This document shows positions 27,060-31,846 of a stretch of 64,000 nt of DNA, piece by piece. The translations under genes and the position numbers were made by a program. Position 1 is the stretch's first letter, and every line of letters starts with the position of its first letter. The stretch covers positions 122,531 through 186,530 of the forward strand of contig JASFQK010000005.1 in NCBI GenBank assembly GCA_050115495.1, in the 5' to 3' direction. The stretch comes from Phycisphaerae bacterium (lineage in GTDB: Bacteria > Planctomycetota > Phycisphaerae > UBA1845 > Fen-1342). The notes under the pieces were generated by a model. It saw only the letters and a list, made by a program, of their open reading frames with translations, was not told the origin of the DNA and ran no database searches.

Positions 27060-30000
27060 ATGAATTGGAGAAGAGTGGTTCTGTCGACTGCCGTGCTTTG
27101 TTGCGCGGCGTTGGTCTGGTCGGCCGCTGCGGCCGCCCCTCCCGTGTCTGCCAACCCGCCTGGCCCCCAGGCGTCTGCGAGCACAGCGATCTCGCAGGAT
27201 CAGGTGCAGCCGGCTAAGGCCGCCCGTCACACGCTGACGGGTCCGGTGAAGCCCGGCGTGGCGGTGCCTCCGCCGATGAACGCCACGGCTGTGACTCCCA
27301 GTGCGTCCATTTCGCGCTCGGAAAACGACGACTGTGCGAACGCCGTCCCGGTCGCTCTGACCGCCGACGTTCCGGTCGTGGTCTACGGCGACACCACGGG
27401 CGACACTGAGGACTGCGCCGCGCTGAGCGGTGGCCAGTACACGGACCAGTGGTACGTCCTCACGATCCCCGAGGAGATGAACCTGTCGATTCGCTACTGC
27501 GATACCGACCCGGTCTTCGCCAACGGCTACATCGTGCTGGACACCACCTGCCCCTGCTCGGGCACGTTCATCGTGGCCAGCAGCTATGCCCAGGACTGCC
27601 CCGACGGCAACTGGAGCATGTACTGGAACAACCTGCCTGCCGGCACGTACTACTGGCCGGTACTCGGCGGTGACACGGGCTGTGTCGGCCCCTACACCGT
27701 GACGTTCCTTGGCGAACTCCCGCCGCCGCCGCCCGAGAATCCTTGCGAGGATCCGGAAAATCCGCCGGTGTACTACAACGGCGCACCGGACCAGGTGAAC
27801 GGCCTAGCCTGCGAGCGCGGCGGTCTCATTGACCCCGGCCCGTGGATCGTGGACGACGTCACCCTCGTGGCCCCCACGACGATCACCGACCTGCATTGGT
27901 GGGCGGCGACCGAAGACGAGTACGGTTGGGACGGGTTCGACGACATCATCATTCTGGCCGACAATGCTGGCGCTCCCGGCGACGTCATTTACGAACTGAA
28001 TGACGTTCCCAACACGCGCATTGCCACCGGCCAGTTCCCCAACGGTCGGCCTGAGTACATCTACACCATCGACGGCCTGAACCTGTTCCTGCCTCCGGGC
28101 ACGTTCTGGATCGGCATGCGTCCCGTCGGCAGCACTGCCGCCGGCCGCAGCTTCTGGCAGACAGCCGCCCCGAACGGCACCACGCCGGTTTACTTCTACG
28201 GGCCCTACTGGGGCTACAACGAGTGGACGCCGTCCTTCGATGTCTTCGGCACGGACTATGACGTCGCCTTCTGCATCACCGGTGAGGCGGGTGAGCCGCC
28301 CGTCGGCGCCTGCTGCAACGACTACACCGGCGACTGCGTGAACGACGTCTCGCTGGCTGACTGCCTGCCTCCGCTCCGCTTCACCGCGGACACGGACTGC
28401 AACAGCATCCAGCCGCCTTGCGGCGTCCTGGGCGCCTGCTGCGTCGACCTGATCTGCGTCTTCACCGGCTACGAAGCTGCCTGTGACGACGCCGGCGGTC
28501 GCTTCTTCCCGGGCGAGGACTGCAATGCCGGGTTCGAGTGCCCGAATGACTGCGAGCACCGTATCGACCTGCTCGACTGCTACGGTGACGGCTGGAACGA
28601 CAACACGCTCGACGTGCTCGTCAACGGTACGCCGGTTCTGACCGGGATCACCCTGGCCTCCGGTTCGGGTCCCCAGTCGTACTACTTTATGGCCGCGACC
28701 GGCGATACGATCACGACCGTCTACAACGCGGTCGGCAGTTACACGGAAGAGCCGTACTACTACGTCTATGACGGCTTCGGCTCCCTCCTTGGTCAGGACG
28801 GTATCGTCGGCAGCGATTGCAACCAGCAACCGACCGGCATCACCGTCTACGGCAACTGCGAACCGCCGACCAGCGGCGCTTGCTGCTACTACGCGGGCGG
28901 CTGCGACCTCGTCGGCAGCGAAGCCGAGTGCATCGACGGTCTGTGGCTCGGTCTGGGCTCCATCTGCGAGCAGTGCCCGTGCATGGTGCCCTGCGAGCCC
29001 AATGAGGGTGAAGAGGTCTGCTACGACGGCTACGACGACACCTACAACGCCGGCTGCAACTCCGATCCGCCAACCTTCCAGCCGATCGCGTGTGGCGAGA
29101 CCATCTGCGGCACGTCGGGCGTCTTCGCTTTCGGAACCTCGACCTACCGTGACATGGACTGGTACCAGGTGACGCTGGATCACTCCTCGATCATCACGTG
29201 GAGCGGCATCGCCGAGTTCCCGGTCGCCATGTGGATCAAGCCGGACGGCTGCCCGTCTGGCGACAACATTCAGTTCGGGACGGCCCCGGAGTGCACACAG
29301 CTCACGCTGACGACCGAGTGCCTCCCGGCCGGCACGTACATCGTGATCATTGCCCCGTCCGACTGGGGTGCCTACCCCTGCGGCGTCAAGTGGGAAGCCA
29401 CGCTCACGTGCGAAGAGTGCGAGTTCTACGGCGCCTGCTGCTTCGGTGACCCGATCCAGTGCGAGGATCTCACCGAGGAAAACTGCAACATGGTCGGCGG
29501 AACGTGGTATCCCGACGAGCTCTGCAGCGCCGGCTTCAACTGCCCGGGTAGCTGCCCCGACGGTGAGCTCATCATCGAGATTTTCACCGACGACTACCCC
29601 GAAGAGACGAGCTGGGTTGTTCAGCGCAACGGCACCGGCGAGGTCATCTGCTCCGCCGGCCCGCTGGAGAACGCGCAGACGCTGCATACCTGGACCTGCT
29701 GCATCGACGATGCCGGCTGCTATGACTTCGGTATTCTCGACTCGTACGGCGACGGCATCTGCTGCTCGTACGGCAACGGCTACTACAACCTGTACCACAA
29801 TGGCACGTTGATCGCATCTGGCGGCGAGTTCGAAGACGCAGAGTGGACGACCTTCATCGGCGACGGCTGCGTCCCCCCGACCGGCCGCTGCTGCTACGAG
29901 CCGTGGCCGTCCTGCGTGGACGAGATCACCGAGGCCGACTGCACGGCCCTGTACGGCGGTGACTGGGTCCAGGATCTCAACTGCGTCGACAACCCGTGCC

Positions 30001-31079
30001 CCGAGCCGGGAACGGCCGACTTCGAGGTCGACGCTCCGTTCACGACGGCGACGCTCGACCTGTGCGGCGCCGGCGACGACTGCAGCCCGGTGAACCAGTC
30101 CAACGACACTGAGGATCACACGTACCTGGTCCACATTCCGAACGACGGCATGTGGAACTTCAATACGTGCCTGACCACCAGTGGCTTCGACACCTGGCTG
30201 GCCGTCGGCACCACGCTGTGCGGCGAGGACGTCGGCTGGAACGATGACTCGTGCAGCGTGCAGTCCGAAGTGATCGTCTACATCCCCGCCGGCGACTACT
30301 ACGTCGACGTGGAAGGCTACTCGACCTGTGGCGAGTACATCCTCGACGTCCACGAGGAAATCCCCTGCGTCCTGTACTGCCCGTGGTGGGCGCCTCTCGA
30401 GCAGGAAGCCTGCGGTGACGACACCAACGGCGGCTGCAACATGGACGTCCCGGCCTTCGAGCCGATCGTCTGCAGCGAGACGCTGTGCGGCACCATCTGG
30501 GCCGACGGCGGCACGCGTGACACGGACTGGTTCGAGTATCGGGCCACCGCCGACGACACCATGACCTGGACCGTCGAGGCGGAGTTCGACGTCGTGATCG
30601 GTCTGGTCGAGACGAACACGCCGGGCTCGGGCGACTGCGCCGACACCACCGGCTACCTGAACCCGTACACGACTGGCGCCGATTGCACGCCGGTCAGCAT
30701 CTCCGTCCCGGTTGTGACGGACGGCATCTACTGGTTCTTCGTGTCGCACCAGACGTACTACGACTATCCGTGTGACACGTTCAACGACTACATCGCCAAG
30801 CTCACCGGCAACGAGTGCATCTGCGGTGATCTGGACTACGACGGTCTGACTGGGAACCTGGATTACCAGTGCTTCCTGGCCGCCTTCGGGTCCTGCGATG
30901 ACGGCGATCCGGAGACGCCCGAAGTGGCGCCGTACCGGTCTGACGCCGACTTCGACGGCGACGGCTGCATCACCCTGGTCGACTACCAGATGTGGGTCTC
31001 CTGCTACCGGGAAGCGAACAAGCGCGGCCCGGCCAACAAGGTTCCCTCCATCGGTAGCCGCCGCGTGGTGGCTCCGTAA
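27060..31079 (+). CDS. Large secreted Cys/Asp-rich multidomain protein with C-terminal dockerin-like (twin EF-hand) module
   Basis: GGAGGAGG RBS, signal peptide MNWRRVVLSTAVLCCAALVWSAAAA, five G(A/R)CC repeats, two DxYGDG domains, two NxGCN...RDxDW domains, C-terminal CGDLDYDG...ADFDGDGCITLVDY. Confidence 0.88.
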   Translation: MNWRRVVLSTAVLCCAALVWSAAAAAPPVSANPPGPQASASTAISQDQVQPAKAARHTLTGPVKPGVAVPPPMNATAVTPSASISRSENDDCANAVPVALTADVPVVVYGDTTGDTEDCAALSGGQYTDQWYVLTIPEEMNLSIRYCDTDPVFANGYIVLDTTCPCSGTFIVASSYAQDCPDGNWSMYWNNLPAGTYYWPVLGGDTGCVGPYTVTFLGELPPPPPENPCEDPENPPVYYNGAPDQVNGLACERGGLIDPGPWIVDDVTLVAPTTITDLHWWAATEDEYGWDGFDDIIILADNAGAPGDVIYELNDVPNTRIATGQFPNGRPEYIYTIDGLNLFLPPGTFWIGMRPVGSTAAGRSFWQTAAPNGTTPVYFYGPYWGYNEWTPSFDVFGTDYDVAFCITGEAGEPPVGACCNDYTGDCVNDVSLADCLPPLRFTADTDCNSIQPPCGVLGACCVDLICVFTGYEAACDDAGGRFFPGEDCNAGFECPNDCEHRIDLLDCYGDGWNDNTLDVLVNGTPVLTGITLASGSGPQSYYFMAATGDTITTVYNAVGSYTEEPYYYVYDGFGSLLGQDGIVGSDCNQQPTGITVYGNCEPPTSGACCYYAGGCDLVGSEAECIDGLWLGLGSICEQCPCMVPCEPNEGEEVCYDGYDDTYNAGCNSDPPTFQPIACGETICGTSGVFAFGTSTYRDMDWYQVTLDHSSIITWSGIAEFPVAMWIKPDGCPSGDNIQFGTAPECTQLTLTTECLPAGTYIVIIAPSDWGAYPCGVKWEATLTCEECEFYGACCFGDPIQCEDLTEENCNMVGGTWYPDELCSAGFNCPGSCPDGELIIEIFTDDYPEETSWVVQRNGTGEVICSAGPLENAQTLHTWTCCIDDAGCYDFGILDSYGDGICCSYGNGYYNLYHNGTLIASGGEFEDAEWTTFIGDGCVPPTGRCCYEPWPSCVDEITEADCTALYGGDWVQDLNCVDNPCPEPGTADFEVDAPFTTATLDLCGAGDDCSPVNQSNDTEDHTYLVHIPNDGMWNFNTCLTTSGFDTWLAVGTTLCGEDVGWNDDSCSVQSEVIVYIPAGDYYVDVEGYSTCGEYILDVHEEIPCVLYCPWWAPLEQEACGDDTNGGCNMDVPAFEPIVCSETLCGTIWADGGTRDTDWFEYRATADDTMTWTVEAEFDVVIGLVETNTPGSGDCADTTGYLNPYTTGADCTPVSISVPVVTDGIYWFFVSHQTYYDYPCDTFNDYIAKLTGNECICGDLDYDGLTGNLDYQCFLAAFGSCDDGDPETPEVAPYRSDADFDGDGCITLVDYQMWVSCYREANKRGPANKVPSIGSRRVVAP

Positions 31080-31096
31080 GTGACTGACGTGGCGTC

Positions 31097-31770: not shown

Positions 31771-31806
31771 GCGAGAATCGTAGTCTCAGACATGATCCTT
31801 AACCGG

Positions 31807-31846
31807 AGAGGGTCGTCTTCCTGCGGGAAGGCGGCCCTCTTCGTTT
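31807..31846 (+). terminator. Intrinsic terminator after the PEP-CTERM gene
   Basis: AGAGGGTCGTCTTCC-tgcg-GGAAGGCGGCCCTCT followed by TCGTTT. Confidence 0.75.

Follow-up and report, generated by a model that had tools for sequence, protein, structure and literature searches.

Two adjacent genes in a 64,000-nucleotide stretch of a Phycisphaerae bacterium genome (contig JASFQK010000005.1; the whole stretch is called the window) probably form a plug-and-socket cassette conserved in a group of uncultured planctomycetes. The predicted single cohesin of a small protein likely binds the dockerin of a large, adhesin-like cargo protein 1:1 with calcium, and the exosortase-processed tail of the small protein would hold the cargo on the envelope or the polysaccharide coat.

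The gene pair and its two products

The cargo gene (27060..31079, forward strand, 1339 aa) and the cohesin gene (31225..31770, forward strand, 181 aa) were both recovered as co-oriented open reading frames, and the ribosome-binding site quoted for them in the original prediction, GGAGGAGG, sits 7-9 bases 5' of each ATG (27045..27052 and 31209..31216, forward strand). GC3 was 0.87 in the cargo gene and 0.82 in the small gene. Folding placed a 14-bp GC hairpin without a U tract 3' of the cargo stop (31097..31129, forward strand; region z -2.9), and each of the five pairs of the host genome has a similar hairpin at this place; it may stabilise the message or act in attenuation. An 18-bp hairpin (31804..31843; z -4.6) lies between the pair and a convergent DUF480 gene and likely marks the end of a two-gene unit. 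RNA contigs from one metatranscriptome run covered 26822-31797 with zero mismatches, bridged the intergenic stretch and ended at 31797, just 5' of the 18-bp hairpin. This cover matches a two-gene unit, and it fits one unit but cannot demonstrate a single transcript; three further RNA runs held small shares only and gave no evidence for the unit. The proposal that both genes share one terminator agrees with the hairpin after the small gene and with the RNA, but a consensus terminator scan returned 0 sites and did not call the 18-bp hairpin either, the genes on either side of that hairpin are convergent, and another hairpin stands between the two genes of the pair.

The small protein has the predicted layout of a signal peptide (31225..31293, forward strand, assigned by eye; helix 4-14 in the model), one beta domain (residues 24-161, about 138 aa; 31294..31707, forward strand) and a PEP-CTERM sorting tail read from the sequence as IPEP, a transmembrane stretch and RRR (31708..31770, forward strand). 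AF2 modelled the domain with a pLDDT of 92. When the model was compared with 48161 chains using VIA-align, the top 19 rows were all cohesins (Z 10.0-13.7; best match 2vo8, Z 13.7, rmsd 2.3, 128 aligned) and the first unrelated row scored 9.1; the top Foldseek matches were also all cohesins. The domain is thereby predicted to adopt the nine-stranded jelly-roll fold of cohesins. The cohesin-like character claimed for it holds for the predicted fold and the structural matches but did not extend to the Pfam search, in which PF00963 matched 0 of 120 small-protein homologues at E<=0.1; a profile of the cohesin family run against PDB sequences likewise found no cohesin. The PEP-CTERM HMM scored 14.8 bits on the window protein, just below its 16-bit cut-off, and PF07589 matched 106 of the 120 homologues at E<=0.1. 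An exosortase, whose presence had been posed as a check, is encoded in the host genome (TIGR02602, 133.7 bits; cut-off 105.55) and exceeded the cut-off in 5/5 relatives. The earlier statement that PEP-CTERM proteins are membrane-anchored was too strong, as the part of PMC12188702 available to us leaves the outer membrane, polysaccharide and periplasm all open as their fate; membrane anchoring of the cargo is what we infer.

The cargo starts with a signal peptide and a Pro/Ala linker, continues through successive all-beta domains of binding type, and closes with a C-terminal dockerin and a short basic tail; it has 87 Cys and five G[AR]CC repeats rich in Cys, and no catalytic domain was recognised in it. 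The AF2 model of residues 85-1250 reached a pLDDT of 85 and a pTM of 0.40. VIA-align matched residues about 224-411 (27729..28292, forward strand) to a lectin-like jelly roll of the Cwp84 lectin-like domain type (4ci7; Z 12.2, rmsd 3.0, 154 aligned), residues about 647-785 (28998..29414, forward strand) to a PPC or collagen-binding-domain-like jelly roll (3jqw, Z 11.5, rmsd 2.3, 110 aligned; 5sv5, Z 11.1), and residues about 984-1250 (30009..30809, forward strand) to tandem jelly rolls of this second kind (1nqd, Z 12.1, rmsd 2.5, 108 aligned; tandem match 5iku). Foldseek with the whole cargo model gave low-TM multi-domain matches only, and residues 91-223, 497-607 and 835-933 were sampled just sparsely by the domain-level comparison. 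A domain scan of 38 cargoes found mostly adhesin-like proteins, 1 subtilase and 0 glycoside hydrolase, in line with the non-CAZyme cargo that had been proposed. A cellulosome was ruled out, given the single cohesin and this lack of glycoside hydrolases.

The C-terminus of the cargo carries two loop-helix motifs (residues 1255-1316; 30822..31007, forward strand), and their reading as a dockerin, here of an asymmetric subtype, was borne out by the family profile, whose best match was PDB 2y3n_B (E 2e-12), and is also favoured by the complex model and the covariation described below. By definition (PMC5429695), a dockerin has two calcium loops whose n, n+2, n+4 and n+11 positions are Asp/Asn, with a helix after each loop. 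In most of 122 natural pairs, both loops have Asp at n, n+2, n+4 and n+11, each then followed by a helix, and from these motifs the domain would fold round two calcium ions. Positions 10/11 of the paired dockerins are variable/Asp in repeat 1 and Leu/Val in repeat 2; because the repeats differ here, a single binding mode is suggested, and the predicted binding face is T52-L53-V54-D55-Y56-Q57 of the second repeat (numbering from 30819). The proposed search with Pfam Dockerin_1 (PF00404) gave no match to the window copy, which has a 7-residue insertion, but the model matched 18 of 32 family members at E<=0.1 (best 6e-7). NCBIfam NF041540 (GC-type dockerin) did not match the window dockerin, and the Pfam/NCBIfam scan left both the dockerin and the cohesin modules of the window copy unnamed.

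Predicted complex and covariation

Modelling of the complex, which had been suggested as a check, gave a confident predicted interface between cohesin and dockerin, with an ipSAE of 0.86 against 0.00 for the best of 3 controls; the mark used for this score is reached by 116 of 157 solved pairs and 2 of 215 mismatched pairs. The runs showed at least 91% contact agreement, with partner pLDDT of at least 81, and of 82-88 for the dockerin in the complex. This pass may come from the model's memory of solved cohesin-dockerin complexes. The predicted cohesin interface comprises residues 57-60, 83-89, 95-102 and 134-149, which would map to strands 3, 5, 6 and 8 in our own DSSP strand numbering; cohesins bind dockerin through the 8-3-6-5 sheet (PMC5429695).

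Independently of the complex model, we computed covariation (MI-APC) over 7482 cross-protein column pairs in the 122 natural pairs. The top three cohesin-dockerin pairs, A140-L53, A140-Q57 and N135-T52, are all among the model's 25 best contacts, and the top 20 holds 5 listed contacts where about 0.07 would be expected; the covarying interface positions of the cohesin are 135, 140, 58 and 149. The top three stayed the same in the 78 rows left once all seed loci and the 16 rows with small partners had been taken out. The residue combinations at these positions (A/L/Q, P/F/Q, V/M/G, L/M/A, E/R) look compensatory. Shared ancestry accounts for some of the covariation: shuffles within 15 cohesin clusters still yielded 2.3 listed contacts in the top 20 (maximum 3), against 8 observed. 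V57-Y56, the second-best predicted contact, had covariation rank 2198. Since dockerin and cohesin covary at predicted contacts, binding between them is probable; the proposal that the small protein captures the large one gains from both the predicted complex and this covariation, and we consider it likely that the two domains bind each other.

From the sequences, both proteins would be exported via their signal peptides and the dockerin would fold round its two calcium ions. Its second repeat would then pack on the cohesin face formed by residues 57-60, 83-102 and 134-149, and the encoded exosortase would process the PEP-CTERM tail. The cargo would thereby be tethered, and its final site may be the envelope or the polysaccharide coat. 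The dockerin would thus act as a borrowed sorting signal, grafted behind unrelated cargoes.

Conservation of the pair and alternative readings

Conservation of the gene pair, a further check that had been proposed, was found in most loci. A dockerin lies within 700 bases upstream of 29 of 31 seed cohesins and of 28/30, 19/30 and 34/46 further cohesins; outside the seed of the dockerin model, 81 of 106 cohesins have a dockerin directly upstream and 25 are without one. As a control, we searched upstream of 131 PEP-CTERM-like ORFs in the host genome and found a strong dockerin only at the 5 paired cohesins, with 17-bit upstream dockerins at 2 other ORFs; chance adjacency was rejected. Starting from dockerins, 15 of 60 loci have the cohesin next, a share biased low by the omission of loci already known from the cohesin side. 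The cohesin is present in 35 of 41 genomes with the dockerin subtype (6 have none detected), versus 14 of 110 without the subtype. Across the order, the family was found in 95 of 279 genomes and not in 184, and in 0 of 250 other genomes of the phylum; these counts rest on the domain-only alignment, as a whole-protein query matched 297 of 301 class genomes purely through the PEP-CTERM tail and gave no usable count. Two cohesins in one protein occurred once among 150 representatives listed.

That the two genes are merely co-regulated neighbours, with the loops as plain EF-hand-like calcium tails and the beta domain holding another ligand, is scarcely credible: EF-hand models match the tail in 17 of 32 family members, about as often as Dockerin_1, and no cohesin match was found at the sequence level, but the cross-protein covariation at predicted contacts, the dockerin-cohesin fusions and an adjacency retained across unrelated cargoes all speak for a partnership. 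A much wider role, in which the small protein is a general receptor for many dockerin-tailed secreted planctomycete proteins, is very improbable. The host genome does hold an orphan cohesin paralogue besides its five pairs, and orphan cohesins and orphan subtype dockerins are common. However, 132 tails of the host genome are of the N10-F11-I13-P15 type, as opposed to L10-V11-Y13 in the paired subtype, none of these 132 ORFs was picked up beside such a cohesin, and the 46 Pfam Dockerin_1 matches of the genome include 0 of the 5 paired dockerins. With no such tail picked up beside the cohesin and the family not found in the 250 other phylum genomes, nor in 184 of 279 genomes of its order, the cohesin looks like a receptor for one dockerin subtype only, and the earlier suggestion of a missing receptor for planctomycete dockerins in general is not supported.

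Two further readings accept the binding but question the tether. In one, which we regard as unlikely, the cohesin serves as an escort or as a matrix clip rather than as a membrane anchor: the cargo uses the exosortase route and the pair is released, periplasmic or exopolysaccharide-tied. The several fates that PMC12188702, in the part available, leaves to PEP-CTERM proteins would allow this, and in many loci each cargo has a cohesin of its own (5 pairs in the host genome, 3 tandem pairs in one relative), which is more partner-like than a shared anchor; moreover, 5 of 126 representatives have dockerin and cohesin fused into a single chain in the order of the gene pair, and some of the fusions lack a PEP-CTERM tail. 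Against it, cargo homologues carry other C-terminal sorting tails directly (IPTL-CTERM in 2/6 and T9SS-type in 2/2 tested over cut-off), so the dockerin occupies the anchor slot; many subtype dockerins lie far from their genome's single cohesin, as for a shared anchor, and the known single cohesins described in the accessible part of PMC11557425 anchor cargo. The other, decidedly improbable, reading makes the bond a clasp between two anchored proteins (of two membranes, a membrane and a coat, or two cells), to which large cargoes were added on. It draws on a cohesin clade (SH-aLRT 99, 19 rows in a quick tree), to our reading a new observation, that is paired in 18 loci with a cargo-less ORF of 113-234 aa that consists solely of a dockerin behind a lipobox-like signal and a disordered linker; such a partner, seemingly already anchored, counts against the cargo-tether reading. 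A model of the lipoprotein dockerins found, in 5 genomes, lipoproteins and only 2 much weaker matches; NF041540 matched 4 of 5 lipoprotein partners tested below cut-off (17-21 vs 29 bits), and no shared neighbourhood was seen by eye round 10 of these loci. The window cargo, however, carries a normal signal peptide without any further anchor, most paired partners (110 of 128) are of other type, and the lipoboxes were assigned by sequence pattern.

Relation to known systems and significance

Anchoring by a single cohesin is known from Gram-positive bacteria, where OlpA/OlpC (SLH; 3ul4, 4dh2) and ScaE (sortase; 2zf9) combine one cohesin with a C-terminal envelope anchor to capture dockerin-tailed proteins; these anchor classes are listed in the portion of PMC11557425 consulted, and 3ul4, 4dh2 and 2zf9 are all among the structural matches of the small protein. 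The small protein differs in its PEP-CTERM/exosortase anchor in a diderm, its identity of <20%, its mostly adhesin-like cargo and the dockerin-then-cohesin order kept as a cassette. The SLH domains or LPXTG sortase signal of a Gram-positive anchoring scaffoldin are missing from it; its tail is PEP-CTERM. The best profile match of the dockerin family, the type II dockerin of B. cellulosolvens Cel48 (2y3n_B), differs from the window dockerin, which is asymmetric and without an X module. For freshwater Phycisphaerae of the same class, non-cellulosomal cohesin/dockerin proteins were proposed as the 'Planctosome' (PMC6461901); as far as the accessible text goes, it is a hypothesis only, with a 2210-aa lamin-tail protein as proposed anchor and peptidase cargo, and lacks both PEP-CTERM and a two-gene cassette. 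Archaeal and Cloacimonadota systems (2xdh; PMC9012536, PMC8542988) also involve proposed surface attachment outside cellulose breakdown, but the parts of these papers at hand give S-layer domains or a T9SS-type tail as anchors and no PEP-CTERM single cohesin. An Atlas cluster of 154 members (99% PF00963, 62% PF07589) has the same cohesin plus PEP-CTERM architecture, already annotated automatically in other bacteria; it is a family separate from the window cohesin and, with a feature score of 0.80, a lead only. Our literature search found no paper on this cluster or its dockerin partner, and none on cohesin-dockerin anchoring by the exosortase route.

More speculatively, and with considerable doubt, the family might represent an exosortase-based kind of docking that is specific to diderms and follows a specificity code of its own. 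The dockerin would be a transferable, second-hand sorting signal, and several orthogonal plug and socket types could be read at positions 52/53/57 of the dockerin and 135/140 of the cohesin. In one branch, a clasp without cargo would link the dockerin, held by a lipid anchor, to the exosortase-sorted cohesin and would span two layers of the envelope or connect two cells.

Almost all PEP-CTERM proteins lack both a defined job and a named ligand; the probable cassette would provide one of them with each, and would extend cohesin-dockerin anchoring to double-membraned bacteria. It would also offer a handle on the final site of exosortase substrates, a site that could be traced with the cargo or with a reporter tagged by the dockerin. 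The more than 100 natural pairs with an apparent specificity code may serve surface display as orthogonal tags, and among the many orphan dockerins of planctomycetes, one subtype would gain its cognate partner in the cohesin.

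The gene pair and its domains

Both ORFs (27060-31079, +, 1339 aa, hereafter the cargo; 31225-31770, +, 181 aa) were confirmed in the sequence, as were the loop-helix motifs at 30822-31007 and both ribosome-binding sites. The shared terminator of the original prediction held in part: a strong hairpin lies 3' of the small gene, but a second hairpin is intergenic and a consensus scan called no terminator for the pair. A GC-rich hairpin without a U tract follows the cargo stop codon in the window (31097-31129), which lies on contig C5 of genome G000, and on contigs C37, C2, C53 and C6 of that genome (5/5 pairs); these hairpins may set cargo:cohesin ratios. 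In a wetland metatranscriptome (X1), two overlapping contigs, unstranded and possibly reflecting DNA carry-over, spanned 26822-31797 including the intergenic stretch with zero mismatches, and are informative neither on strand nor on a single transcript. Coverage ended at the final hairpin, with almost none over the convergent neighbour, and pieces of the cargo gene were covered in a separate study (X2). The neighbours look unrelated to the pair; those in 20900-26238 and 31890-37663 include a TPR membrane protein, an HNH protein, a DUF480 gene, a HEAT/PDZ protein, STAS-like, CoA-binding-like and ammonia-lyase-like ORFs (the last three by eye) and tRNA-Met (33061-33134).

Cargo residues 85-1250 were modelled by AF2 as a chain of all-beta domains (pLDDT 85) resembling the collagen-binding/PPC domains of clostridial collagenase and the lectin-like domain of Cwp84 (Z 11-12). 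No catalytic domain was recognised in the cargo, three domains of which were barely covered by the comparison, and we thus infer that it is adhesin-like. Its C-terminus proved to be a dockerin, as predicted: the family profile best matched 2y3n_B in the PDB (E 2e-12), 18 of 32 family members matched Dockerin_1, and both loops keep the n, n+2, n+4, n+11 pattern described in PMC5429695. The two repeats are asymmetric.

The small protein gave only a sub-threshold PEP-CTERM tail in Pfam/NCBIfam; among 120 homologues, 106 matched PF07589 and none matched Pfam Cohesin. However, cohesins were the top 19 among 48161 chains compared with its AF2 model (pLDDT 92; best Z 13.7, rmsd 2.3, 128 aligned), and Foldseek and Atlas structure searches likewise pointed to cohesins. 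Judged on this model, the small protein is a cohesin by predicted fold and not by sequence family, in agreement with the cohesin-like domain first proposed. The family comprises 833 representatives at E<=0.001, and a PEP/PAP-type tail ends 95 of the 126 newly listed ones. Acidic residues D62, D90, D92, D134 and E137 (window 31408-31410, 31492-31500, 31624-31635) are invariant or nearly so; D62, D90 and D92 lie away from the predicted interface and could constitute a metal site.

Conservation of the cassette

G000 encodes six cohesins of the family, five directly behind a gene with a C-terminal dockerin of one common subtype; these dockerins scored 79-99 bits, against 27 for the next dockerin-like tail. 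From 168 distinct cohesins, 18 with <700 bases upstream were left out. A dockerin lay <=700 bases upstream at 29/31 seed, 28/30 scan, and 19/30 and 34/46 order-wide loci, with dockerin-led loci (13/13) excluded and related genomes not independent. Outside the seed set this amounts to 81/106 cohesins, so the adjacency is conserved; among 131 PEP-CTERM-like ORFs of G000, taken as a control, a strong upstream dockerin occurred only at the five paired cohesins. The converse was looser: a cohesin followed 15 of 60 dockerin-led loci (a count biased low). When 42 candidates were scored per genome, a cohesin was found anywhere in 35/41 genomes with the dockerin subtype versus 14/110 others, and cargo is therefore likely also bound in trans.

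Within the order, 95 of 279 genomes carried the family, against none of 250 other sampled genomes of the phylum; relatives carrying it are labelled Phycisphaerae or Planctomycetota MAGs, and one deltaproteobacterial MAG (L085) has it with gene order unchanged. The unpublished genome G283 underlies none of these claims, having entered only as one of 301 genomes in a class-wide search. Cargoes are highly varied (38 of 43 complete ones scanned), with GEVED, GBD_T9SS, DUF11, PKD, FG-GAP, beta-helix and one subtilase, and the dockerin end is all that paralogous cargoes such as those on C2 and C6 have in common. The cassette repeats in tandem or dispersed (L042 on G233:C19, L074, and eight copies in G257); in G257, PAP replaces PEP in the tails and the dockerin is a variant of its own.

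Five representatives carry dockerin and cohesin in one chain in cassette order, among them P0128 (signal peptide-dockerin-cohesin-PEP-CTERM). The fusions listed are P0128, P0195, P0193, P0157, P0185, P0180 and P0123, with one PEP-CTERM and one T9SS-type tail; P0123 is a minimal scaffoldin of two cohesins and PEP-CTERM. The literature search, confined to accessible main texts, returned no paper combining cohesin, dockerin and PEP-CTERM, or PEP-CTERM with either domain; the lists of domain architectures in the supplements to PMC9012536 and PMC6461901 could affect how novel the combination is. For exosortase with cohesin or dockerin it returned one archaeal review, PMC5244752, which handles them separately. 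The Cohesin + PEP-CTERM architecture as such is already picked up by automatic annotation.

Predicted binding of dockerin and cohesin

With two Ca, the complex scored 0.86 (0.93, 0.86, 0.78) from unpaired alignments of 120 + 32 rows, versus 0.00 for the best control; runs agreed in at least 91% of contacts, with partner pLDDT at least 81. The score mark is reached by 116/157 solved complexes and 2/215 mismatched pairs. Because cohesin-dockerin complexes have already been solved, such a score may reflect structures memorised by the predictor. Covariation offers a test of binding independent of complex prediction; it was computed over 122 natural pairs, 6 of the 128 available having been removed because they were too short. 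The top three of 7482 cross-protein scores (cohesin-dockerin residues A140-L53, A140-Q57, N135-T52) were each among the model's 25 best contacts, and 10 of the top 20 pairs joined interface residues (1.7 expected; shuffles <=3). The same three persisted when small-partner rows were removed, when down-weighting was strengthened and when all seed loci were left out. Shuffles inside 15 clusters retained some signal (2.3, max 3, versus 8 observed), so covariation is partly due to ancestry. The pair is real and conserved, and it is very probably a binding pair.

Receptor scope and probable exosortase anchoring

The small protein had also been proposed as a general receptor for planctomycete dockerins. 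This is not supported: 132 ORFs of G000 end in a distinct, NFD-type dockerin, and none of the paired five is among the genome's 46 Pfam dockerin matches. Positions 10/11 of a dockerin are classical specificity sites. Two secreted proteins of ~1000 aa (G000:C25:69362-72538, G000:C3:22965-26009), in which a Pfam cohesin is combined with Cys-rich repeats and a dockerin-like end, are candidate adaptors of NFD-type dockerins. For a cohesin clade recovered in a quick tree (SH-aLRT 99), the partner in 18 loci is a small lipoprotein-like ORF of 113-234 aa with a lipobox-like signal, disordered linker, dockerin and nothing else (loci listed: L054, L055, L194-L203, L257, L259-L261, L263); no comparable second dockerin was found in five genomes tested. 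A pair in which both partners are anchored and cargo is absent suggests a clasp, the boldest of our readings.

OlpA and OlpC are SLH-anchored. An exosortase, as anticipated, was found above cut-off in G000 and in 5/5 relatives. Secretins are also present in G000, one domain lying within a 4378-aa open frame (G000:C25:37490-37987), and the window's cohesin is matched in the Atlas structure search by cohesin-fold domains that Acidobacteriota carry fused to type II/III secretins. A dockerin of the paired subtype terminates 43 of 119 cargo homologues. Others finish with a different dockerin or with an IPTL-CTERM or T9SS-type tail (4 of 8 tested scored over cut-off), so the dockerin stands in for a sorting signal. 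PMC12188702 leaves open what exosortase attaches its substrates to, so we infer tethering to membrane or coat. Cargo of this family would probably be held at the envelope through exosortase.
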